This document shows, in pieces, positions 12,248 to 28,915 of a stretch of DNA of 64,000 nt. The translations under genes and the position numbers were made by a program. Position 1 is the stretch's first letter. The number at the start of each line of letters is the position of its first letter. Source of the stretch: a virus; IMG/VR virus record IMGVR_UViG_3300044695_002580, positions 1 to 64,000 of that record; one strand, 5' to 3'. The notes under the pieces are model-generated. The model saw only the letters and a program-made list of their open reading frames with translations, was not told the origin of the DNA and searched no databases.

Positions 12248-12334
12248 CCTGAGAGCCTCGGCGTGTCGCCTTTCCTGTGAGTTTCTAGGTTGTCGGCGTG
12301 TCGTGTAGGTGGGTGGGTGGCTATCTAGTAGCCT
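12248..12334 (+). promoter_or_regulatory. early-type promoter cassette P1
   Basis: CCTGAGAG 12248 + GGCGTGTCG 12260; CCTGTGAG 12274 + GGCGTGTCG 12295; -10 TAGCCT 12329. Confidence 0.75.
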
Positions 12335-12373
12335 TATCCCACGCCACCAGATAGGGGGCAAAAAGGGGGAATA

Positions 12374-12670
12374 ATGAAAACTATCAACCAAAAGCAAGCG
12401 GTTCAGGCTATCGCTAACCTAGAACCTTTCAAGGCGGGCTCACTCACAGGTGAGTGGGTTCGTGTCTCATTCTACTCAGGCAGACTCAGCGTGAGCCACC
12501 CTGAGTTAGCCAATCTATGCGAGACACTCAACAAGGGCGAAAGCGCCTATGTCGTGTTCTCATACTTTACGCCTATCGCATACGCCACAGAAAAGTGGCA
12601 CACAGTAACCGAAAAGTTCTCACCTACAACATCACGCCATCAATCCATAGTTAGAAAGGCGGTCGCATAA
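12374..12670 (+). CDS. hypothetical early protein
   Basis: SD GGGGGA; YVVFSYFTPIA...FSPTTSRHQ motif common in phage early genes. Confidence 0.7.
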   Translation: MKTINQKQAVQAIANLEPFKAGSLTGEWVRVSFYSGRLSVSHPELANLCETLNKGESAYVVFSYFTPIAYATEKWHTVTEKFSPTTSRHQSIVRKAVA

Positions 12671-12945
12671 TGGAAATGGAAAAGGCAAAAGTTCATCAGT
12701 TCTTGCGCTCTCTCAATGGCAAGTTCTTCACAGTGGAATTCATCAAGCGCACGACGGGGGAGGTTCGCGTAATGCGAGCCACCACCAACTACGAAAGCAA
12801 GTTAGCGGGAGGGGACTTAGGTTACGACGCTAACGAAAAGGCTCTCATTCCAGTATGGGACTTAGAAAAGAAAGCTTTCCGCTCAATCCCAACGGACGCG
12901 GTAGTTCGTATAGTAGCCCTAGGGAATACATACGAAATCAAGTAG
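12670..12945 (+). CDS. WYL-like/SH3 beta-barrel protein
   Basis: FTVEFIKRTTGEVRVM...VWDLEKKAFRSI pattern. Confidence 0.6.
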   Translation: MEMEKAKVHQFLRSLNGKFFTVEFIKRTTGEVRVMRATTNYESKLAGGDLGYDANEKALIPVWDLEKKAFRSIPTDAVVRIVALGNTYEIK

Positions 12946-12950
12946 GACAA

Positions 12951-12976
12951 GAGGCGCGGACTTCCCCCCGCGCCTC
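12951..12976 (+). terminator. 3' hairpin with pyrimidine (anti-SD) loop
   Basis: GAGGCGCGG/CCGCGCCTC stem, loop ACTTCCCC. Confidence 0.6.
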
Positions 12977-13073
12977 TCTCGATTCCCCGTAGGGGAATGG
13001 GGAGGGTGGGCCAACACAAACATAAGAACGGCATAGGGACTGGCAAAGGAACCCCAGGAATAATAAAGAGAAT

Positions 13074-13189
13074 TCTGTGAGTCGGGCGTGTCGGCTTGAC
13101 ACCCCACGCGGTCGGGCGTGTTGCCAATCCTGTGAGTTTTTAGACTTTCGGCGTGTCGCATTGTATCTATCAGGGCTATCAACTAGATT
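13074..13189 (+). promoter_or_regulatory. early-type promoter cassette P2
   Basis: TCTGTGAG 13074 + GGCGTGTCG 13085; GGCGTGTTG 13115; CCTGTGAG 13129 + GGCGTGTCG 13150; TTGTAT-17-TAGATT. Confidence 0.8.
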
Positions 13190-13219
13190 TATCTTATGAA
13201 CAGAGGGGGGGTGATTATT

Positions 13220-13522
13220 ATGGAAAACACAGAAAGCACTACCGCTATCGCGGAAATGTGGCAAGGTAGCGATGTTACTCGCCTAGTAGGCGCTAACGCA
13301 ACACTAACCAATGTCCGCACTGGTAGCACTATCACGGGGCGTATTACAAGCGCGAAGGTCAGCACTATCGCTAAGGACTCTGACCTTTATGTCGAAGGTC
13401 TATCTTTCGTCAGCGAAGTCAAGGTCGAAGGTATCTACGGGTCATTAGACCTAGCGACACCATTCATCAGCGACTGGGCACGCAAGTCGTATGACCACTG
13501 GCTAATCAACATTCAGGCGTAA
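13220..13522 (+). CDS. hypothetical early protein
   Basis: SD GGGGGTGA upstream of ATG 13220. Confidence 0.65.
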   Translation: MENTESTTAIAEMWQGSDVTRLVGANATLTNVRTGSTITGRITSAKVSTIAKDSDLYVEGLSFVSEVKVEGIYGSLDLATPFISDWARKSYDHWLINIQA

Positions 13523-13529
13523 GCCGCAA

Positions 13530-13556
13530 GGGGCAGGTGCTTCCCCCACCTGCCCC
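13530..13556 (+). terminator. intergenic hairpin
   Basis: GGGGCAGGTG/CACCTGCCCC stem, loop CTTCCCC. Confidence 0.55.
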
Positions 13557-13591
13557 ACTAATAACACTACTAGGGGAAAGGGGGGGACATC

Positions 13592-13753
13592 ATGGAAGTA
13601 GACCCACGCTATGCGATGGCTCAAGTCTATAAAGCTTTACGCGGTAAAGCAGAATTGACTGACCAGTTCACTGATGAAGTGAACAATTGCAACGGCCCAG
13701 CCGATGCATTCAAAATCTGCATGAAGTACCTATCGTTAGCAAACGCTTCATAG
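13592..13753 (+). CDS. small hypothetical protein (53 aa)
   Basis: Manual ORF MEVDPRYAMAQVYKAL... with strong G-rich SD. Confidence 0.6.
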   Translation: MEVDPRYAMAQVYKALRGKAELTDQFTDEVNNCNGPADAFKICMKYLSLANAS

Positions 13754-13759
13754 GTTGTT

Positions 13760-13787
13760 CAGCCCCGCGGCCGTTCCCGCGGGGCTG
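13760..13787 (+). terminator. GC-rich hairpin
   Basis: CAGCCCCGCGG/CCGCGGGGCTG. Confidence 0.55.
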
Positions 13788-13851
13788 GCGCAGTTTGTGT
13801 TGGCCCGCCCACCCCGTTCTATATTTATATAGGGAGTTAGGGAAAGAGAAT

Positions 13852-13912
13852 CCTGTGAGTTTCTCAGGATTCGGCGTGTCGCATTGATTGCTATCTACGC
13901 ATAGTTTAGAGT
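13852..13912 (+). promoter_or_regulatory. early-type promoter cassette P3
   Basis: CCTGTGAG 13852 + GGCGTGTCG 13873; TTGATT-17-TAGAGT. Confidence 0.8.
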
Positions 13913-13949
13913 TCCACTAGTAGCCAAGGGGGCTACGGGAAAGGGATAT

Positions 13950-14204
13950 ATGTCAGAAAAGTACTATTCTACTGGTAGGGATTTAACTATCTCAATGGTA
14001 GAAATCAAGGCTAACTCAATTGAGGAAGCCGAAGCGGTTATGCAACGATTCATAGATGTAATTAGTGAAGTTATGAAGGACGATGTACGCTGGGATGAAG
14101 CGGACTGGTCCATTCAAGAAAATACATTAACGGCAGAAGGTATCTACGAAGTTACCGACGAGTATGACTACCATAAGGGTCATAGAATAATTGAGGTGGC
14201 ATAA
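13950..14204 (+). CDS. acidic hypothetical early protein
   Basis: SD AAGGGA; VEIKANSIEEAE motif. Confidence 0.65.
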   Translation: MSEKYYSTGRDLTISMVEIKANSIEEAEAVMQRFIDVISEVMKDDVRWDEADWSIQENTLTAEGIYEVTDEYDYHKGHRIIEVA

Positions 14205-14350
14205 TGTGTTTTAAATGTGGGACTACGCAAGACGGTAATATTGTGCACAGTGGGACCGACGCATTCTGCCTCGGGGTAATCGAACACGTAGGGCGCATAT
14301 GCTATGACTGCGCTAATAAGGTTAACAAGAAGGAGCAGGTAAATGCCTAA
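14204..14350 (+). CDS. small Zn-finger protein (48 aa)
   Basis: Manual ORF MCFKC...ICYDCAN; TAATG coupling. Confidence 0.55.
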   Translation: MCFKCGTTQDGNIVHSGTDAFCLGVIEHVGRICYDCANKVNKKEQVNA

Positions 14351-14540
14351 TGAAATCATCTTCTACAACGGTTTCAACCTACTCGTGGATATCATCATCG
14401 CGGTCACCGTTGGATTCTTTGCCTACAGGTCAGGTAAAGCTTCAGGTTATATCCAAGGTTACGGTGAAGGTGAAGAAGACTATCGTGACAGTCTCGAACG
14501 ATACGCCGACTACGCGTACGAGGCCAGCCGCGAGCGCTAA
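14343..14540 (+). CDS. small single-TM protein
   Basis: SD AAGGAG; hydrophobic helix followed by GYIQGYGEG. Confidence 0.6.
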   Translation: MPNEIIFYNGFNLLVDIIIAVTVGFFAYRSGKASGYIQGYGEGEEDYRDSLERYADYAYEASRER

Positions 14541-14610
14541 CAAGTTTCTCGTAGACGTGGTTCCAGACTAGGACGTCCGCCACTTATACGTGAATGCATA
14601 ACCCCCTCAG

Positions 14611-14643
14611 GGCCCCAGTGGATATCCCTTCCCCACTGGGGCC
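14611..14643 (+). terminator. intrinsic terminator with anti-SD loop
   Basis: 11-bp GC stem, loop ATATCCCTTCC, followed by TTTT. Confidence 0.7.
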
Positions 14644-14669
14644 TTTTGCTTGCCCTATTAAACGAGAAT

Positions 14670-14751
14670 GTTTGTGTTGGGGCTTATGGGCGTGTGTGTA
14701 TAAACATTTCGATATATATCTTCATATACACACATAAGCCCCAACACAAAC
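14670..14751. repeat. GTTTGTGTTGG-bounded long hairpin, copy A1
   Basis: 19-bp perfect inverted repeat plus inner 8-bp stem. Confidence 0.85.
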
Positions 14752-14755
14752 CTTT

Positions 14756-14848
14756 CCTGAGAGTCGGGCGTGTCGCCCTGGTGCAATCCTGTGAATAATA
14801 AGACTATCGGCGTGTCGCTGATAAGGCTGAGAGATAAGAGTCTAGTAT
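14756..14848 (+). promoter_or_regulatory. early-type promoter cassette P4
   Basis: CCTGAGAG 14756 + GGCGTGTCG 14767; CCTGTGAA 14788 + GGCGTGTCG 14809; -10 TAGTAT 14843. Confidence 0.8.
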
Positions 14849-14893
14849 TAGGGCACGCGAGACGGTCTCGCGAATTGAAGGGGGGTGTGCCTT

Positions 14894-15901
14894 ATGGCGC
14901 ACGACTTGGAAATGGAGAACGGCGAGGTTGCCTTCGCGCTACGCGGGGCACCCGCTTGGCACGGTCTAGCAAACCGCACATTCTCCGCTGATGAGCATGT
15001 CTCAACTGCAGACATGCTCTCTGCTGCAAAACTAGACGGATGGAATGTCCGCCTAGAGGATGCGATTTATCCTGAAGGATACCGCACCAACTCTGACCTA
15101 TTCATGGTCACACGCACCAATCCATTCGATGCGGGCACTGACGTGCTTGCAATCGTCGGTAAGCGTTACCGCGTATTCCAAAACGAGGATTTATTCACCT
15201 TCGGTGATAACATCCTAGACGGTGGCGCATCATGGGAGTCTGCTGGCTCCATTAAAAACGGCAAGGTAGTCTTTGGCTCCCTAGTCGTACCTCGCGAGTT
15301 CATTCTCGACCCTAACGGCGCTGCTGATAAGACTACTACTTATCTGCTCGTTCATACATCACACGATGGCTCTGCATCAGTTCAAGCATCCATTACTCCA
15401 GTTCGCGTGGTCTGCCAAAACACGCTCCATGTCGCACTGAATAACACCAAGAGTTCATTCAAGTTGCGCCATACTCTCAAGGTAGAGGGTCGCGTTGCTG
15501 AGGCTCGCATGGCTCTTGGTCTCACCTTCAATTACATGGATGAATTCGAATCCATCGCTAAGTCTCTCTTTGAGACTCCAATGAACGCCGTTCAATGGGA
15601 TAAGTTGATTAACACAATTTACCCTAAGCCTGATGCTAACCAAGCGCCACAAGTGAGCACCAAGTGGCAGGCTAAGCGCGACCTACTGGATGATATTTAC
15701 TTCCAGTCTCCAACCCAGACCAACATCAAGGGCAATTACTGGGGCGCCCTCAATGCACTCACTGAGCGCATCGATTACTTCCGCACTGGTCGCACCGCCA
15801 ATGGCGAGGCGCTCATCGGAGCAGCCAGTGGGTTCGACCCAGTGGTCAATGCGGAAAAGTCCCGCATCCTCCGCGCCGTCCGCGAGTTAGCGAGCGCGTA
15901 A
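14894..15901 (+). CDS. DUF932/TIGR03299-family phage-plasmid protein
   Basis: MAH...PAWHGL, QNEDLF, ESAGSI, SHDGS, TPVRVVCQNTL, WGALNALTE motifs. Confidence 0.85.
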   Translation: MAHDLEMENGEVAFALRGAPAWHGLANRTFSADEHVSTADMLSAAKLDGWNVRLEDAIYPEGYRTNSDLFMVTRTNPFDAGTDVLAIVGKRYRVFQNEDLFTFGDNILDGGASWESAGSIKNGKVVFGSLVVPREFILDPNGAADKTTTYLLVHTSHDGSASVQASITPVRVVCQNTLHVALNNTKSSFKLRHTLKVEGRVAEARMALGLTFNYMDEFESIAKSLFETPMNAVQWDKLINTIYPKPDANQAPQVSTKWQAKRDLLDDIYFQSPTQTNIKGNYWGALNALTERIDYFRTGRTANGEALIGAASGFDPVVNAEKSRILRAVRELASA

Positions 15902-15908
15902 GCCTACT

Positions 15909-15936
15909 AAGCCCCCCGCATCCAGCGGGGGGCTTT
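15909..15936 (+). terminator. intrinsic terminator
   Basis: AAGCCCCCCGC/GCGGGGGGCTT followed by T. Confidence 0.65.
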
Positions 15937-15957
15937 GGCATGCTCAAAAGAAGCTGA

Positions 15958-15978
15958 TTATCCACAGCCTGTGGATAA
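15958..15978. promoter_or_regulatory. inverted pair of perfect DnaA boxes
   Basis: TTATCCACA-GCC-TGTGGATAA. Confidence 0.75.
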
Positions 15979-15980
15979 GT

Positions 15981-16070
15981 GTTTGTGTTGGGGGCTTACT
16001 GAACAGATACTAATACAAGGTATAGGTAGCGTTCATAACAGCACCTATACAGTAAGCCCCCAACACAAAC
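15981..16070. repeat. GTTTGTGTTGG-bounded long hairpin, copy A2
   Basis: 20-21-bp perfect inverted repeat, inner GTATAGGT/ACCTATAC stem. Confidence 0.85.
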
Positions 16071-16080
16071 CTTAGAGTCG

Positions 16081-16174
16081 GGCGTGTCTGAGAGTGTGGC
16101 GTGTCTGCTTTCCTGTGAGTTTTAGAGATTATGGGCGTGTCGTGAAAGAGATAGCAGACCCCTATGGTTAGATA
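16081..16174 (+). promoter_or_regulatory. early-type promoter cassette P5
   Basis: GGCGTGTCT at 16081 and 16098; CCTGTGAG 16112 + GGCGTGTCG 16134; -10 ambiguous. Confidence 0.7.
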
Positions 16175-16248
16175 CTCGTAGTGGAAATACCACTATTAGA
16201 GAGAAGGAGAAATCCAATGCTTGATAACCCAATCAAGGAACGACTCTA

Positions 16249-16710
16249 ATGATGAAGGGGGGTGATACTATCTTTACACGCAACAACGCTCAACTCATTG
16301 AGCAACAAGCCGTTCGCAACCCTATGGTTGATGGACAATACTTTACCAACATGACCGAACTACTTTGGTCTGATGGGACTATTACATTCGGTTGCCTCAA
16401 GTGTGGCGAACAAACCGAAAGCCGACCACAACTATCTATCCATGTGGGCAAGGCACACAATCCAAAGCCTGCTAAGACTACTAAGACTATTAAGTATAAA
16501 GCGGTCAAGGCAACAGGCACACGACCATACACCAAGCGCAACAAGGAATACTGGGCAAATGGTGGCAACATCAACCAAAATCGTAGAACAACAACCGACT
16601 CTACTCTAGCCGATAAGGAACTAGAGTTTTGGAAGGCGCAAGCGCACCGAGCAGAGGCTGAACTCCGCAAGGTAAAAGCGCAACTAAAAGCCCTACTAGA
16701 CATAAAGTAG
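16249..16710 (+). CDS. C2H2 zinc-finger protein with C-terminal coiled coil
   Basis: C-x2-C-x12-H-x4-H (CLKCGEQTESRPQLSIHVGKAH); start could be ATG 16249 or ATC 16270. Confidence 0.65.
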   Translation: MMKGGDTIFTRNNAQLIEQQAVRNPMVDGQYFTNMTELLWSDGTITFGCLKCGEQTESRPQLSIHVGKAHNPKPAKTTKTIKYKAVKATGTRPYTKRNKEYWANGGNINQNRRTTTDSTLADKELEFWKAQAHRAEAELRKVKAQLKALLDIK

Positions 16711-16790
16711 GCAGGGTTTCTCACCCCCCGTGAGATAGCACCTGAGCAAGTGGCTAAAAGGCTCACCACCAACTAACGAAGGGTAAGAAA

Positions 16791-17189
16791 GTGGCAACCA
16801 CTATAAAAGTAGATAGGCTAGTCCTATTAGATGCTCTACAAGTAAAATTGGCAGAGCAAGATAAACTCCGTGCCGAATACAAAAAGGCTGAGGAGAAATA
16901 CAAGAAAGAGCAGGAAGCCTTTGCTGATAAGGTTCTAGCATTGGCTAAGTCAGGCAAGTTAGAGGTTCATAGAGTCAATACCCGCACCTACAACGGCGGG
17001 CTGATTGAGGTTGAGTGGAAGGCTGACCGCGCACTCATCAACTCCGAACCACAGAGTCCTGACCGACCTGAGGGCTGGGTTCATGAAAGCGATTATGAGG
17101 AACTCCGTAAGACTATCAGATTGCTTAGCATGACGACAGAGCCTTATGTTCCTGCCTCAACTTATCGCGCAGTATCACAATGGCTTTAA
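16791..17189 (+). CDS. coiled-coil hypothetical early protein
   Basis: GTG start with purine-rich leader; helical charged sequence. Confidence 0.65.
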   Translation: MATTIKVDRLVLLDALQVKLAEQDKLRAEYKKAEEKYKKEQEAFADKVLALAKSGKLEVHRVNTRTYNGGLIEVEWKADRALINSEPQSPDRPEGWVHESDYEELRKTIRLLSMTTEPYVPASTYRAVSQWL

Positions 17190-17304
17190 TAGCATAGGGC
17201 TATTAAACACTCCTGAGCATGAGTATAAAAGGCTTCACCTTTGACATAGGGTGCTTTCGTAAGGGGTAGGACTATTATCTCCATTCTAGTCCTCCCGTGT
17301 TGTC

Positions 17305-17340
17305 AATAAGCCCCCCGCCTGTGGAGTCGGGGGGCTTATT
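17305..17340 (+). terminator. intrinsic terminator
   Basis: AATAAGCCCCCCG/CGGGGGGCTTATT. Confidence 0.7.
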
Positions 17341-17427
17341 GTTTGTGCTGGGCTTGCTGTAATAAGTAGCTATCACGGTATAGGTACGGATTTCATCTCT
17401 GCCTATACCAGCAAGCCCAGCACAAAC
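17341..17427. repeat. GTTTGTGCTGG-bounded long hairpin, copy A3
   Basis: 18-19-bp perfect inverted repeat with compensatory changes relative to A1/A2; inner GGTATAGGT/GCCTATACC stem. Confidence 0.85.
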
Positions 17428-17430
17428 TTT

Positions 17431-17515
17431 CCTGTGAACTCGGGCGTGTCGTATCCTGTGAGTTTTGGAGAACTCGGGCGTGTCGCTTTGGTGTGGAGAG
17501 AGATGAGAGTATTGT
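17431..17515 (+). promoter_or_regulatory. early-type promoter cassette P6
   Basis: CCTGTGAA 17431 + GGCGTGTCG 17443; CCTGTGAG 17455 + GGCGTGTCG 17477; -10 TATTGT 17510. Confidence 0.8.
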
Positions 17516-17543
17516 TCGCCTTACCCAATAGAAGGGGGTATGT

Positions 17544-18065
17544 ATGAACAGTTTAGAACGCAAAGAGCGTTTTACAGAACTGATGGCAACGATAGAGTTG
17601 TTGCCTAGTGTAGATGATGAAAACTACGAGCCTGTATTTCCTAAGGGAACACTAGGCTTATCAGATGGCAACCTCAAGACCGCAATCATGGCACAGGCTA
17701 TGAGAGGTGATGAGGACTTCGTTGGTAATCTTATCAACGCGCTCGCCAACACAGGCTTCGAGGCTTGCCACGCCAAGCATGAGGCTGATGAAACACCTAA
17801 CGACGACGACCTCTCCGCTATCACACTAGCAATCCATGTAGCGTGGGCGAGTGGCGCACTAGCCCCTATGCTACTCCTATTAGGTGGCATGGGTAAGATG
17901 TTATCTGCCCTAGATGTAGATGTGCCTGAGGATTTGCCACTCATTTTCCGTCCTAACGGCTTGATGGCTGATAAGGCAGGTAAGTTCGACCCGATAGCCC
18001 TACTAGACATGGATAAGGCTAGCCTTATCAAATACATGGCAAAGGAGTTGGGTGATGACGACTAA
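17544..18065 (+). CDS. acidic helical hypothetical protein
   Basis: SD GAAGGGGG; 173-aa ORF. Confidence 0.65.
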   Translation: MNSLERKERFTELMATIELLPSVDDENYEPVFPKGTLGLSDGNLKTAIMAQAMRGDEDFVGNLINALANTGFEACHAKHEADETPNDDDLSAITLAIHVAWASGALAPMLLLLGGMGKMLSALDVDVPEDLPLIFRPNGLMADKAGKFDPIALLDMDKASLIKYMAKELGDDD

Positions 18066-18276
18066 AATTGTAGATGGCGTAAAGATGGTAGAGGTGCCCT
18101 TCACAATTACTTACAATGTCCTCGTAGAGGAGCACAAGTACCTAGAGTATGTAACTTCGGGTATCCCAGTAGGTGCTATGGCACAGGCTGGTAAAGAAAC
18201 CCTATTAGATGTAACCAAGCCTGTTATAGATAAGGCTAATGAAAACTGGACAACTATGATGGTAGAGGTGGCGTAA
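18052..18276 (+). CDS. hypothetical protein
   Basis: SD AAGGAG; overlaps upstream gene. Confidence 0.6.
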   Translation: MMTTKIVDGVKMVEVPFTITYNVLVEEHKYLEYVTSGIPVGAMAQAGKETLLDVTKPVIDKANENWTTMMVEVA

Positions 18277-18791
18277 TGGGTATGGATGTCTATGGTACTA
18301 AGCCTACTAGCGAGAAGGGCGAGTATTTCAGAAATAACGTGTGGTGGTGGCGACCACTATGGGATTACTGTGAGCATGTAGCGCCCGAACTGTGTGAAGG
18401 CGTGAGTGCCCACTACAACGACGGAGATGGATTAAATGATGAGAAGGCCAAGGCGCTCTCTAAAATCCTTCTAGAAACCCTATCAGATGGCAGATGCCTA
18501 ATCTATGAGGCGCAGTACAACCTAGAGGTCTCGCAACTTCCTAATGAGGACTGCAATATATGTGATAAGACTGGCATACGCACCGACGAGGTGGGTAAAG
18601 AGCACGGCATGGATGTAAAAGCCCTATCAGATGATGAGGCTATCGTGTTAGGAAGGGAAACGGGCTGGTGTAATGGGTGTAACGGTCTTGGTTGGAAGCC
18701 AAACTGGGCAACTCACTATCCATTCTCGCGTGAGAACGTACAAGAGTTCGCAGAGTTCCTAGCAGAAAGTGGTGGATTCAGTATCTGCTAG
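18276..18791 (+). CDS. conserved phage early protein with Cys pairs
   Basis: MGMDVYG...GEYFRNNVWWWRPLW...FLAESGGFSIC family pattern; CNIC and CNGCNG. Confidence 0.7.
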   Translation: MGMDVYGTKPTSEKGEYFRNNVWWWRPLWDYCEHVAPELCEGVSAHYNDGDGLNDEKAKALSKILLETLSDGRCLIYEAQYNLEVSQLPNEDCNICDKTGIRTDEVGKEHGMDVKALSDDEAIVLGRETGWCNGCNGLGWKPNWATHYPFSRENVQEFAEFLAESGGFSIC

Positions 18792-18876
18792 GGTTACCCC
18801 CTTCAACTAATCCACCAAATAGGGCTAGCAAGCACCAGCTTGCTGGCCCTATCTCTTTGCCTGGCGGCGGCAGCAG

Positions 18877-19019
18877 AGTTTGTGTTGGCCCACCCATCGC
18901 TCATAATGTATTCAATTATACATTATTCGCTTTCCCACCCTTTATGACCTTTTTTAATATAAAAAAGGTCATTCTGCCCATTGGGCTATTGGCTTTAGCC
19001 ATATAGCCCAACACAAACT
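18877..19019. repeat. multi-stem variant of the GTTTGTGTTGG hairpin family
   Basis: AGTTTGTGTTGG/CCAACACAAACT closing three internal hairpins. Confidence 0.7.
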
Positions 19020-19043
19020 GTGGCGCATATCACATGAGAGATT

Positions 19044-19094
19044 CCTGTGAATACGGCGTGTCGGCTTGAGAGAGAAAGAGAGAGAGAATAGGCT
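19044..19094 (+). promoter_or_regulatory. early-type promoter cassette P7
   Basis: CCTGTGAA 19044 + GGCGTGTCG 19055; TTGAGA-17-TAGGCT. Confidence 0.75.
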
Positions 19095-19135
19095 AGGAGA
19101 TTTGCCGTTTCGGCTACTGCCACCCTAGCAGGGGG

Positions 19136-19151
19136 TGTGACCGCGCTCACA
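19136..19151. promoter_or_regulatory. CRP/GlxR-type box
   Basis: Perfect TGTGA-N6-TCACA; a one-mismatch copy TGTGG-N6-TCACA lies at 19019-19034. Confidence 0.6.
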
Positions 19152-19238
19152 GCCAGATTTAATAGCCCTATCTGCAAGGACTATGCGGATAATAGGCTTA
19201 TTGGAGAGAGAGGCAGGTATAAGTTACTCATGGGTAAC

Positions 19239-19299
19239 TCTGTGAGTTTTAGGGGGTATCGGCGTGTCGTCTTTAATATAGATAGAGAGTCACTACGCT
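19239..19299 (+). promoter_or_regulatory. early-type promoter cassette P8
   Basis: TCTGTGAG 19239 + GGCGTGTCG 19261; -10 TACGCT 19294. Confidence 0.75.
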
Positions 19300-22972: not shown

Positions 22973-23280
22973 CCAGCACAAACCTACTACCAAAGACAGG
23001 TCAATATAACGACCTTGCACTTAAATATATAAATGGCGACCCCGACGCAATAGCCTTATTAGATACGGTTATCGGGTCGTCGCTAGACTTATGCGCCCTG
23101 CGTAATAACCAAGATGAACGCCTAACCAACTACTTCGAGTACCACGACGTACGCGGTGAGATAGATGAGGCTATCGACAGTATCGAACCTCATGCAGATA
23201 AGTTAGGCTTACGAGCGCCTATCCTTGACGAAGCAGATGAACGCGACCTAGAGAACGGTTATGGACTAGACGGTATCTAA
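22969..23280 (+). CDS. acidic hypothetical protein
   Basis: ORF with SD GAGGA. Confidence 0.6.
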   Translation: MTSTNLLPKTGQYNDLALKYINGDPDAIALLDTVIGSSLDLCALRNNQDERLTNYFEYHDVRGEIDEAIDSIEPHADKLGLRAPILDEADERDLENGYGLDGI

Positions 23281-24229: not shown

Positions 24230-24657
24230 TGCAAACCTTTCTGCCATACGCAGACTTCAAACTAACCGCACAAGTATTAGACTATCGACGCTTAGGCAAA
24301 CAGAGAGTCGAAGCCTATCAAATAGTAAGAGTATTAGACGGCACTCAACAAAGTAACGCATGGCACAACCACCCTGCGGTGCTGATGTGGAGAGATAACC
24401 TAGACGCACTCAAGTCCTACGGGAGAGAGATATGCCTAGAGTGGATACGTCGTGGATATAACGATAACCTTATTACGCACTTCCAGCACAAACCCGCGCC
24501 CGACATGCCAGCGTGGCTAGGCGACGAGCGGATACATATATCACACCAAGCAAACCTAGTGAGAAAGTTACCCGAGCATTATAGGCTACACTTTCCCACA
24601 GTAGATGAAACTATGCCCTACCATTGGCCTATAACTAAGGAGAACCTACATGGCTAA
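24229..24657 (+). CDS. pyrimidine-dimer DNA glycosylase/DenV-like (MSMEG_6728 family)
   Basis: MQTFLPY...LDYRRLGKQRVEAYQI...HPAVLMW...SHQANLVRK. Confidence 0.85.
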   Translation: MQTFLPYADFKLTAQVLDYRRLGKQRVEAYQIVRVLDGTQQSNAWHNHPAVLMWRDNLDALKSYGREICLEWIRRGYNDNLITHFQHKPAPDMPAWLGDERIHISHQANLVRKLPEHYRLHFPTVDETMPYHWPITKENLHG

Positions 24658-27469: not shown

Positions 27470-28915
27470 CTACTTATCCTCAGTTAAATCTTTAATAATC
27501 TTGGTAGTCTCCGTCTCATTTAGCCCGTTATTAGGTAGTTCTTTTAGGACTTGAGCCTTGTCTCCGAAGATAGAAGATAGCACTCCTGCCGAGCCTTGGC
27601 GCTCTACGGTCATGCGGATAAACTCCCTAGAGTCGTCCAATTCCTTGACCGTCTTGATTAATTTAAACAGTCTATCTATCTCTTGGGAAACGTTCGGGTC
27701 AGCGTACCCACCGTTCATTTCTTCGCTAAAACGCATAAAAGCAACCCTTTGTCCCTGCATTTCGATGATTGCATTGATTAGGCTCTTGAGTTGGTCTTTG
27801 CTCTTTACCTCTACTGGTAACTTAAAAGCGCACATAGATTGAGGCTTGAAAGCAGGGCAGTTGGCGGCTACGAAACAGGTGTCGCACTGGCGCAACGTAC
27901 CTGATTGCGAGGTAACATGCACGTTGTCGGTGATGACGCCATCGCCATCTACATCGCTCTTAACCTCGTATCCGAACACTGGTAAATTGATGATTTCATC
28001 GGGATTGCGTGGCATAAGTTTCCGCATATCTACCCCCTTATTATCAGCATCCGTAGGGGTGATTTCCGTGTTTGGCGTACCTGCCTCATCCTGATAATAA
28101 GACTCTCCCACTTTGTTTATCCTCTCTTCAAAACGTTCATAAGACCATACCGCTAGGCGGCAAACCTCTTTGTTGTCGTCCTCGGCTATGAGGTCGGCGT
28201 CGATTCCAGCCTTGGCATACACGTGGTTATACCTTGAACGGGATTGTTCCTTCATGCGCTTGGGATATCGCATAAGCCTAGTACCATCCCAGACGATTGT
28301 CTCCCCATGAGTCATGGGTGATAGCCACGATAGGGTATGAGCAGTTTCGGCTTGGATTGAACGAAGGTTGTCTGGCTTGGCACATCCTAGCGCATGAAAC
28401 CTAGTTCCCTGACGCTTGGTGGCGGTTCTGGTGGTGGAGGCCAGCCTGGTCTCAGATTCAATGGCTGCCCCTGGGATTCCGATATCTAAATAGTTATTTA
28501 TAAGCCTGTTGAGGTTATCTAAACCTAAGTCTGGATTCCAGACGGGCAGAAACTTGCCTGGCGGCACCTGGGCCCAAGCTGTGCGGCGCTGTTCCTCTAC
28601 GAAGGCTGGGTCTACAAATCCATAATTAAGTTCTGCAAATAAAGTTAATCTATCAATATTCATCGCTACAAACTGCTCGTAGGCAGCTGCGAATTCTTCG
28701 AGCTCAAGGCGTCCCATCTTGGCCGACAGGGGTATCCCTGGATATAAATATATATAGGAGTCTTTTGGGAAGTAGTTATCTATTAAATAGGGTTTTGTTT
28801 TAGGTAGCCCTCGACGCACCAGGCCGTGGAAACTGATGCCCAGGTGGTTAGCCGTGGTGGTTTCAAGAAGGGTTCGATTGCTGGGGACCTCGCACCCCAT
28901 ATATACAATTTTCAT
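27470..28915 (-). CDS. hypothetical, possible degenerate TGT/DpdA-like barrel with Cys cluster and coiled coil
   Basis: RFHALG...ETAHTLSW resembles HxLG...SxDSxSW; CDTCFVAANCPAF...C. Confidence 0.4.
   Translation of the reverse strand: MKIVYMGCEVPSNRTLLETTTANHLGISFHGLVRRGLPKTKPYLIDNYFPKDSYIYLYPGIPLSAKMGRLELEEFAAAYEQFVAMNIDRLTLFAELNYGFVDPAFVEEQRRTAWAQVPPGKFLPVWNPDLGLDNLNRLINNYLDIGIPGAAIESETRLASTTRTATKRQGTRFHALGCAKPDNLRSIQAETAHTLSWLSPMTHGETIVWDGTRLMRYPKRMKEQSRSRYNHVYAKAGIDADLIAEDDNKEVCRLAVWSYERFEERINKVGESYYQDEAGTPNTEITPTDADNKGVDMRKLMPRNPDEIINLPVFGYEVKSDVDGDGVITDNVHVTSQSGTLRQCDTCFVAANCPAFKPQSMCAFKLPVEVKSKDQLKSLINAIIEMQGQRVAFMRFSEEMNGGYADPNVSQEIDRLFKLIKTVKELDDSREFIRMTVERQGSAGVLSSIFGDKAQVLKELPNNGLNETETTKIIKDLTEDK

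Follow-up and report, generated by a model that had tools for sequence, protein, structure and literature searches.

Most of the unknown genes that lytic phages devote to host takeover and anti-defence lie in their early regions and, to our knowledge, the shuffling of early genes is poorly understood beyond T4-type phages. Integron attC sites are imperfect palindromes of 57-141 nt, with short conserved inverted end boxes and a cassette-specific variable centre. Correia-type MITEs are intergenic, measure 100-150 bp, have terminal inverted repeats and can affect transcription; they occur in hundreds of copies, with TA duplications and repeats that are conserved. The homologous regions (hr) of baculoviruses consist of tandem imperfect palindromes of ~30 bp that are bound by IE-1 and act as enhancers/origins and recombination hot spots. 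REP sequences occur in numerous near-identical copies, are tied to the RAYT transposase and carry a GTAG/CGTC tag. REP and BIME sequences are extragenic palindromes located 3' of transcription units, with proposed roles in supercoiling, termination and mRNA stability (PMC3733652). In T4-type phages, PeSLs form a conserved terminator/promoter joint between small non-essential early genes and serve as homology islands for the insertion, deletion and replacement of gene modules between related phages (PMC2839356, PMC4122927).

Elements of the early array

The elements described here belong to a large family of DNA palindromes, so far undescribed, which stand between early-gene units in a group of uncultured freshwater phages. 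Their plan comprises two invariant 11-bp ends, inverted to each other; inside these, 7-15 bp more that are free in sequence yet perfectly complementary; and, at the centre, an AT-rich asymmetric core with small hairpins of its own. The window, which is the whole 64,000-nt stretch of DNA that was analysed, comes from a 96.9-kb genome (CheckV completeness of 100%) and contains the following elements and flanking motifs.

13000..13021 (+): one-armed relative that has the 3' arm alone; ahead of the arm lie a G-rich tract and, at 12982-12998, a small hairpin
13793..13814 (+): one-armed relative that has the 5' arm alone, with a C-rich tract; conserved in L003, L013, L021 and L026
14611..14643 (+): GC-rich terminator-like stem-loop (sequence motif) at the end of the cassette upstream of E1
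14670..14751 (+): element E1, 82 nt; perfect 19-bp outer stem, short 5' bulge, inner stem, core 68% AT
14756..14817 (+): promoter/operator-like two-box repeats (CCTGWGAG and GGCGTGTCG), beginning 5 nt past E1
15912..15932 (+): GC-rich terminator-like stem-loop (sequence motif) at the end of the DUF932 cassette upstream of E2
15958..15978 (+): DnaA-box-like TTATCCACA as a perfect inverted pair, 2 nt ahead of E2
15981..16070 (+): element E2, 90 nt; perfect 21-bp outer stem, 5' bulge of 19 nt, inner stem stacked on the 3' arm
16081..16142 (+): two-box repeats (CCTGWGAG and GGCGTGTCG; sequence motif) past E2
17308..17337 (+): GC-rich terminator-like stem-loop before E3; its T-rich tail passes directly into the 5' arm of E3
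17341..17427 (+): element E3, 87 nt; perfect 19-bp outer stem, 5' bulge of 17-18 nt
17431..17485 (+): two-box repeats (CCTGWGAG and GGCGTGTCG), beginning 4 nt past E3
18878..19018 (+): element E4 ("class B"), 141 nt; same 11-bp ends, two CCCACCC boxes, three inner hairpins

A sequence-only reading of this DNA had proposed three hairpins at the positions of E1-E3, with perfect outer stems of 18-21 bp, a one-sided 5' bulge, an inner stem stacked on the 3' arm and a loop. All three lie at exactly those coordinates, their outer stems are perfectly Watson-Crick paired over 19, 21 and 19 bp, and folding bore out the anatomy. That reading had overlooked the fourth full member, E4, which is recognised by the covariance model (E = 4e-5) and is the last element of the array here and in relatives. 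The two one-armed relatives are complementary to each other across 22 nt. The 13000-13021 form is kept alike in relatives L034 and L018, and its counterpart in L016 and L036 is a variant with other sequence ahead of the arm.

The window contains 15 copies of the 11-mer end motif, compared to 2.6 expected. In a scan of the whole 96.9-kb genome, the exact 11-mer clusters at 13-19 kb, and three copies also lie within coding sequence (7348, 22973 and 24483). A single 6-kb array contains all the elements, which keep fixed positions; each genome has 4-7 of them. E1-E3 fold with z = -7.6 to -8.9 as RNA and -7.4 to -9.6 as DNA on either strand, where the antisense strand equals or betters the sense strand.

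Comparison with described systems

Like PeSLs, the elements mark composite terminator-like/promoter-like joints, at which indels and replacements break. However, a PeSL is a promoter and terminator stem-loop only, whereas here a separate palindrome of 70-140 bp lies in between, with invariant ends, a variable but perfectly paired stem and a core that is itself exchanged; moreover, this phage clade is unrelated to T4-type phages. PeSLs are further marked by mini-circles that arise when adjacent motifs recombine. The elements share with REP and BIME sequences that they are extragenic palindromes of similar size placed after the 3' ends of units. In contrast to REPs and REPINs, they are phage-borne, the copies have their 11-bp ends alone in common (paralogue cores have a median identity of 60%), and no RAYT was found (PF01797, Y1 transposase, had no match in the genome). 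The REPIN-like identity suggested by the sequence-only reading therefore fails as family membership. By analogy, the element would be PeSL-like or REP-like in role while belonging to neither family.

With attC sites, the elements have in common the conservation of structure over sequence, asymmetric bulges, a position between gene cassettes and an imperfect palindrome with a variable centre. They differ in their ends, GTTTGTG ... CACAAAC, whose TGTG misfits the RRRY of the attC RYYYAAC ... GTTRRRY boxes, and in their stems, which are perfect and lack conserved extrahelical bases. Moreover, each cassette here has promoter-like and terminator-like motifs of its own, and no excision or empty-site products were seen in 285 instances. 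The 96.9-kb genome also lacks an IntI-type tyrosine recombinase: PF00589 had no match there and matched all control genomes. PF00239 (serine recombinase) and PF01844 (HNH) likewise had no match in the genome; a search for endonuclease VII found nothing, as did its control. The early proteins are orphans, with no informative Pfam, PHROG, PADLOC, PDB or Atlas match.

Correia elements resemble the family in their inverted ends, intergenic place and similar size, but here there are no duplications, no conserved repeats and no hundreds of copies. Baculovirus hr sequences are comparable as dispersed palindromic repeats adjoining early genes in a large DNA virus, but have no sequence or organisational homology to the elements.

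Flanking motifs

As judged from sequence motifs, the element occupies the gap from a terminator-like stem-loop to the promoter-like motifs of the next unit. A GC-rich stem lies ≤25 nt upstream of the element in 60 of 80 distinct contexts; in 42 of the 80 it lies ≤6 nt upstream and the spacer is T-rich, so that the 5' arm prolongs the T-tract. A CCTGTG-type motif follows the element in 59/80 contexts, mostly within 12 nt. The upstream stem-loops have weak T-tracts and were uncalled by a simple terminator scan, whose sole call was the inverted TTATCCACA pair at 15958-15978. Simple scans likewise did not call the promoter-like motifs, and both assignments are of motifs alone; the spacer with the element may therefore be transcribed. 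Thus, the position between terminator and promoter given by the sequence-only reading stands, but its flanks are only terminator-like and promoter-like. A sigma-70-like promoter within the element (TTGCTG-N17-19-TATAGG) was dropped as a candidate because it fits the E2/E3 subfamily only.

Pairing and anatomy

The stems of 116 distinct family members comprise 2,087 cells, of which 99.8% are paired, compared to 82.4% in shuffles (0/500 reach the observed value) and 36-47% when the partner is slid. These cells contain 345 double changes (98 ± 15 in shuffles) and 1 one-sided change, which implies that G-T wobble is essentially absent. Counting anchored at the ends gave 1,195 variable pairs for 109 elements, whose 8-nt stem extensions take 57 different forms; shuffled cores attain 16 bp in 0.1% of trials. 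The 81 oriented stems of ≥16 bp contain zero G-T pairs and one mismatch, which occurs in a stem recombined from two alleles. Very strong selection acts on the pairing, which keeps strictly to Watson-Crick pairs. The compensating arm differences and selected structure that had been read from three copies are thus general to the family.

A long hairpin is not obligatory, since about 40% of unique sequences (75/184) have a perfect run of <16 bp, mostly the 11-12-bp ends alone, and since the two one-armed relatives are conserved. The long perfect stem claimed earlier therefore holds for E1-E3 and is not universal in the family.

Cores are 61-68% AT compared to 42-53% for the arms, and both strands fold equally well as DNA. 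In the inner parts, G-U pairs number 61 on the sense strand and 34 on the antisense strand, and stability favours the sense strand by ~2 kcal/mol on average, which gives a weak hint of a strand-specific single-stranded form. The internal asymmetry is co-oriented with transcription in 22 elements and opposed in 4. Bulge and core sequences are conserved position by position, and bulge motifs persist while stems change, for example ahead of the gene family at 17544-18065. A role in structure alone does not account for this conservation.

Turnover among relatives

Orthologous elements are 0.93-0.98 identical, compared to 0.5-0.9 for their flanks. E3 is 95-97% identical to the copies in L006/L037, where the flanking genes are about 68-79% identical. 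Paralogues of the same genome have a median identity of 0.60 (maximum 0.84, no duplicate), compared to 51% for shuffled sequence. Copies thus differ within a genome, yet orthologues outdo neighbouring genes in conservation.

Cores have been swapped at conserved ends between L017 and L063, which are 97.6% identical across 2.8 kb, and between L018 and L167, which are 94.7% identical across 5 kb; the adjacent 70-nt flanks of these swapped cores show 0-2 differences. Overall, the phages between which whole cores were swapped are 95-99% identical. More than one allele was found in 8/128 contexts, and 18/113 alleles recur across contexts. Two independent assemblies show one core in reversed orientation at its site, between identical flanks. 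Core orientation is concordant in 556 of 560 informative pairs and discordant in 4, and frequent flip-flop (rolling-hairpin-like) behaviour was rejected on this count. For an invertible promoter switch (inverton), one clean inversion was seen, but the genome has no serine or tyrosine recombinase match.

No target-site duplication was found in the flanks, as the sequence-only reading had stated, and none of the 285 instances had an empty site. Gene-content differences between relatives have their breakpoints at or inside elements. The core with its variable stem is a module that is exchanged exactly at the conserved ends, occasionally inverted and never deleted. Exchangeable promoter-gene cassettes had been proposed, and the breakpoints agree with them, but the cleanest exchange is of the hairpin core itself. 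Together, free-sequence perfect stems, cores above genes in conservation and whole-core replacement at fixed end points make up an unusual evolutionary regime.

Candidate function of the elements

Our leading reading, to which we give a probability of roughly 0.45, is that the DNA element forms a hairpin or cruciform, delimits autonomous early cassettes and acts as a recombination handle. We favour it because of the position of the elements, their strict Watson-Crick pairing and the equal folding of both DNA strands; because of AT-rich cores compared to the arms, persisting single 11-mers and clade specificity; and because of orthologue conservation, core swaps, the in-place inversion, the lack of empty sites and the breakpoints at elements. 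The AT-rich core would be unwound by supercoiling, replication or a polymerase that reaches the terminator, whereupon the GC-rich arms could snap to a hairpin or cruciform. A putative phage or host factor may recognise the constant 11-bp duplex at the base of this structure; alternatively, the duplex may be an annealing handle for template switching. As a structural boundary, the element would keep adjacent early transcription units independent of one another; it would also supply the next promoter with regulatory information from upstream, and be a hot spot for cassette and core exchange between co-infecting relatives. Several points count against this reading: extrusion of a cruciform with a 40-50-nt unpaired centre is kinetically hard, and no element-binding protein or nuclease was identified among the early proteins or the four enzyme families searched. 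The short stems of about 40% of members, the one-armed relatives, the position-by-position conservation of core and bulge, the inner G-U excess on the sense strand and the flanks assigned by motif also weigh against it.

It is unlikely that the element acts instead as RNA, with a hairpin transcribed by weak-terminator read-through or from an unrecognised promoter and an 18-26-bp duplex that would be an RNase III-type processing site uncoupling the units, or a small regulatory or decoy RNA presenting the conserved bulge. The weak T-tracts of the uncalled upstream stem-loops would suit such transcription, and the very stable folding, the sense-strand advantage of 2 kcal/mol with its greater number of inner G-U pairs, the bulge motifs conserved despite changing stems and the asymmetry mostly co-oriented with transcription (22 vs 4) are consistent with it. 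However, G-U is virtually absent in >2,000 stem cells though the 5' arms are G/T-rich, and the antisense strand of the window copies folds as well or better. Moreover, promoter-like motifs lie downstream of the element, one-armed members are conserved, and two assemblies retain the inverted core. With ≤3 mismatches allowed, nothing elsewhere in the 96.9-kb genome is complementary to the bulges and loops of E1-E3, so the bulges lack a target there. An Rfam covariance search, the check proposed with the sequence-only reading, matched no known family at gathering score; the best scores were 24-38 bits compared to thresholds of 48-100, from microRNA precursor families and one leader family, and their occurrence on both strands is the behaviour of a generic long hairpin. 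The guide or decoy small RNA of that reading is unsupported, given the terminator/promoter position, the near-absence of G-U and the bulges without complement. Its ssDNA/cruciform option fits better, and exchange breakpoints at elements are observed.

We also regard as doubtful an upstream enhancer/origin-like module, that is, a palindromic protein-binding platform like baculovirus homologous regions, perhaps with a DnaA-box-like motif, that would activate the next early promoter or be an unwinding/priming site. A duplex binding site needs no perfect arm-to-arm complementarity, and nearly identical phages have whole cores replaced or inverted between unchanged flanks. In its favour, the element lies directly upstream of every early promoter-like region, the core is AT-rich, position-specific bulge motifs are conserved (e.g., before the gene family at 17544-18065), and orthologous cores are conserved above gene level. 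TTATCCACAGG occurs ≤12 nt past the element in most relatives and a perfect inverted pair lies ahead of E2, but another motif replaces the DnaA-box-like motif at most sites of the window's phage.

Least probable is a selfish non-autonomous mobile element (MITE, REPIN or PATE type) that has settled in neutral spacers and that an unrecognised enzyme would move in trans: the family has conserved inverted ends, cores are exchanged at the ends, the elements are islands of high identity and 18/113 alleles occur in more than one context, but there is no target-site duplication, no empty site in 285 instances, no genome with two like copies and no match to the four enzyme families searched, the elements keep to fixed positions in one 6-kb array, and 596 Gb of bacterial genomes gave 5 pattern matches, 4 of them in non-hairpin sequence. 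The element is therefore not a MITE, and the IS-derived MITE that the sequence-only reading had named as a counter-explanation finds no footing in duplications, empty sites or enzyme families.

If the elements are DNA hairpins or cruciforms, as we favour, they would be a rare natural example of a double-stranded DNA phage in which DNA function and recombination depend on structure, and could provide portable insulator or exchange sites for phage engineering. A bolder proposal, which we hold to be rather improbable, makes them the cis sites of an undescribed structure-guided exchange in lytic phages, where the palindrome would be broken or would stall replication and its two conserved, outward-facing 11-mers would confine repair or template switching to the core, giving precise cassette exchange and inversion without excision. 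Such exchange would parallel that between inverted recombination sites but need no recombinase, and would keep early-gene units and regulatory cores circulating among co-infecting freshwater phages.

Extent of the family

The same architecture was found in 38 viral loci and at least 120 metagenome loci, with 184 distinct sequences, and the family is specific to a phage clade. Full-text literature searches for the end motifs returned unrelated primers only, and literature searches on phage cruciforms and palindromes returned nothing equivalent. No cultured phage gave a near DNA match. By DNA polymerase and DUF932 protein, Streptomyces phages are the nearest relatives in culture, and they have neither exact 11-mer copies nor comparable inverted repeats. 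The 11-bp inverted ends are a clear signature by which the boundaries of early-gene cassettes can be recognised in this widespread group of uncultured freshwater phages. In a separate search with the AAA protein, the matches were close relatives only.

Palindromes in the early region of the phage

The phage contig is 96,881 bp long (46% G+C), is rated complete by CheckV, and contributes its first 64 kb to the window. It encodes a DNA polymerase, a DnaB-like helicase, a UvsX-like recombinase, baseplate proteins, a B12-dependent ribonucleotide reductase, and a metallophosphoesterase. No near DNA match was found among cultured phages. The nearest cultured relatives are Streptomyces phages (40% amino-acid identity for the DNA polymerase and 52% for the DUF932 protein), and the actinobacterial affinity that this may suggest is one of distant protein similarity alone. 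The palindromes sit in the sole rightward-transcribed block (about 12.2-25.2 kb), which holds small, mostly orphan genes; early proteins gave no informative match in Pfam, PHROGs, PADLOC, PDB sequences, or Atlas.

Features of the window
12248-19269, + strand: fifteen GGCGTGTCG-like boxes and ten CCTG(T/A)GAG boxes, in every early intergenic region
13000-13021: one-armed site (single 11-mer, 3' arm)
13793-13814: one-armed site (5' arm), complementary to 13000-13021 over 22 nt
14670-14751: palindrome E1, perfect outer stem of 19 bp
14885-15901: DUF932 protein gene
15958-15978: perfect inverted pair of TTATCCACA, a consensus DnaA box, 2 nt upstream of E2
15981-16070: palindrome E2, perfect outer stem of 21 bp
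17341-17427: palindrome E3, perfect outer stem of 19 bp
18878-19018: palindrome E4 (class B), 141 nt, full member
27470-28915, - strand: queuine tRNA-ribosyltransferase-like gene (PHROG 887)

The sequence-only reading had placed E1 to E3 exactly, and its description of a 5' bulge, a loop, and an inner stem stacked on the 3' arm agrees with what we observed. Compared with shuffled sequence, these three folded with z scores of -7.6 to -8.9 as RNA and of -7.4 to -9.6 as DNA of either strand. The window holds 15 copies of the end motif GTTTGTGYTGG (2.6 expected). Genome-wide, its intergenic copies all fall within 13-19 kb, and a further three exact matches are within coding sequence (7348, 22973, and 24483).

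E4 and the two one-armed sites are further members. A covariance model built without E4 recovered it (E = 4e-5); it shares the family ends and contains a pair of CCCACCC boxes plus three inner hairpins, including a perfect 13-bp AT-rich palindrome. Class B elements occur in 11 relatives, always as the last element of the array and directly ahead of AAA-ATPase/VWA genes, and the C-runs of some of them correspond, on the opposite strand, to a G-quadruplex motif of four runs. Between the one-armed sites lies a unit of two genes (771 bp). Four loci from relatives (L034, L018, L016, and L036) have the 3'-arm type or a variant of it, and four others (L003, L013, L021, and L026) have the 5'-arm type; both types precede the same downstream gene pair.

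Family size and compensated changes in the stems

With the two ends required to lie 50-80 nt apart, the pattern matched 38 viral loci, each with at most 5 copies, on contigs whose length reaches about 98 kb and in several cases is 93-98 kb. It also matched at least 120 metagenome stretches, whose names point largely to lakes. Bacterial and archaeal genomes totaling 596 Gb yielded only 5 matching stretches, 4 of which were not hairpin-like. An Rfam search with the palindromes gave no match above threshold, and a full-text literature search did not find the end motif. The pooled set comprised 184 distinct sequences of 64-153 nt, many from loci that are near-duplicates from different samples, so that sequence counts are not counts of independent events. 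Perfect stem runs were bimodal, at 16-36 bp in 109 of the 184 and at 7-15 bp, mostly 11-12 bp, in the other 75; shuffled cores attained a 16-bp stem in 0.1% of trials.

Across 116 distinct rows aligned to the model (2,087 stem cells), 99.8% of cells were paired, compared to 82.4 ± 0.5% in column shuffles (0 of 500) and 36-47% with a slid partner. Double changes affected 345 cells (98 ± 15 in shuffles), and a one-sided change was present in one cell only. Each of positions 13-21, counted from the end, showed 3-4 Watson-Crick pair types and zero non-Watson-Crick pairs. When isolated mismatches were permitted, 81 oriented stems of at least 16 bp contained one mismatch in total; the 5' arm of that stem matches one E3 allele and the 3' arm another, which implies that this copy is a recombinant. 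Orthologous stems showed compensated substitutions, as well as a compensated 3-bp insertion, and their cores were nearly constant.

Position between early units

The DUF932 gene is the commonest gene adjoining elements across all relatives. In Streptomyces phages such as Jay2Jay, the closest cultured homologues of its protein are found close to the left genome end, and each record matches at two places; a sequence search for a solved structure returned none. Among 80 distinct contexts, oriented by a heuristic based on the flanking motifs themselves, a GC-rich stem-loop lay at most 25 nt upstream in 60 and a CCTGTG-type motif lay downstream in 59, mostly within 12 nt. In 42 contexts, a spacer of at most 6 nt, for example TT or TTTT, separated the stem-loop from the palindrome, so that the T-rich 5' arm extends the stem-loop's tail. 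The palindrome thus fills the interval separating one unit's end from the next unit's control region. Simple consensus scans called neither these stem-loops as terminators nor sigma-70 promoters here, and the flanking motifs are putative terminators and promoters.

In most relatives, the downstream motif is TTATCCACAGG, which follows every element, includes a consensus DnaA box, and is itself followed by phased GTTAT repeats. The phage of the window has CCTGTGAG instead, and its version of the motif, CCTG(T/A)GAG, is coupled with GGCGTGTCG. These boxes form short-spaced and long-spaced pairs, the two-box sites standing where relatives have GTTAT repeats; their probable role is that of non-canonical promoter or operator sites.

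Exchange at the conserved ends

Orthologous elements are 0.93-0.98 identical and adjoining genes 0.5-0.9; E3 and its copies in loci L006 and L037 are 95-97% identical, with flanks at 68-79%. By contrast, paralogues of one locus share little beyond the ends, with a median core identity of 0.60 (maximum 0.84; shuffled 0.51; 253 pairs). Unrelated cores occupy L017:2277-2365 and L063:1048-1125, in phages 97.6% identical over 2.8 kb, and also L018:4819-4903 and L167:499-574, in phages 94.7% identical over 5 kb. Both swaps have the conserved ends as breakpoints, with 0-2 differences in 70 nt per side. More than one allele was found in 8 of 128 flank contexts, and more than one context for 18 of 113 alleles. 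In L016:6758-6846, a 51-nt core is exactly inverted relative to two independent assemblies (L069:5442-5530 and L071:6159-6247) with identical 19-bp arms and flanks; inversions of this kind are rare, at 4 of 560 informative pairs.

Relatives vary in gene order and gene content as well. Between L016 and L015, homology ends 20 nt into one element and restarts 12 nt before the end of another, with an extra cassette between. Between L018 and L003, an element is kept together with about 50 nt of control region, and replacement of the gene and its stem-loop runs to within 3 nt of the next element. Together with the end-precise core swaps, these comparisons bear out the earlier proposal that exchange has breakpoints at the hairpins. 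One gene family precedes the DUF932 gene in L034, L016, and L036 and follows it in the window, L018, and L026. Gene turnover also occurs within cassettes, distant from any element, and therefore does not require the elements. At the conserved ends, either general recombination or template switching would suffice to account for the core swaps; tyrosine and serine recombinases, Y1 transposase, and HNH had no match in the phage genome.

A proposed boundary element acting as DNA

The best-supported reading, to which we assign a probability of about 0.45, is a DNA-level boundary element. Its arms would pair within one strand and the palindrome would keep autonomous early units apart, serving also as a joint for recombination; the 11-bp ends could be a protein site or homology handles for exchange. 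The family is alike in role to the PeSL (promoter-early stem-loop) cassettes of T4-type phages (PMC2839356, PMC4122927) and to bacterial REP/BIME repeats, and alike in anatomy to integron attC sites. It is a member of neither the REP/BIME repeats nor the attC sites, and probably not of the PeSL cassettes.

Cores and bulges are conserved position by position, which is the main feature that this boundary reading leaves unexplained. It suggests that upstream regulatory information is encoded in the element as well, and because of it an enhancer- or origin-like variant keeps a small share of the probability.

G-U pairs are usually tolerated in RNA families. Here, they are nearly absent from the stems although the 5' arms are G/T-rich. 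Folding is equally good on both strands, one-armed members are kept in several phages, one core persists inverted, no site complementary to the bulges was found in the phage genome, and AT-rich cores (61-68%) lie between GC-richer arms, a composition that favors opening of the centre and then intrastrand pairing. These properties point to DNA and speak against the small RNA with a guide or decoy bulge that had been proposed as one of two options. In favor of RNA, G-U pairs of the inner part number 61 on the sense strand and 34 on the other, the sense strand is on average about 2 kcal/mol more stable, and the bulge precedes the inner hairpin, on its 5' side, in 22 elements and follows it in 4. 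However, this strand signal in G-U pairs and stability is weak because the sequences are interrelated, and we consider an RNA role unlikely. Flanks joined without an element were seen in 0 of 285 cases, and it is very improbable that the palindromes are selfish MITEs.

Other observations

The 3'-arm 11-mer at 22973-22983 and 24483-24493 lies inside or at the start of downstream-operon coding sequences, and single arms are present at the matching gene junctions in relatives. The gene at 27470-28915 possibly encodes a DpdA-type enzyme, in which case 7-deazaguanine bases may occur in the phage DNA. In L073, a metagenome contig of 11,971 bp, cmsearch matches equal those of E1 to E3 in score and length; judged by these two values alone, it probably carries the elements of the same or a very close phage from an independent metagenome.
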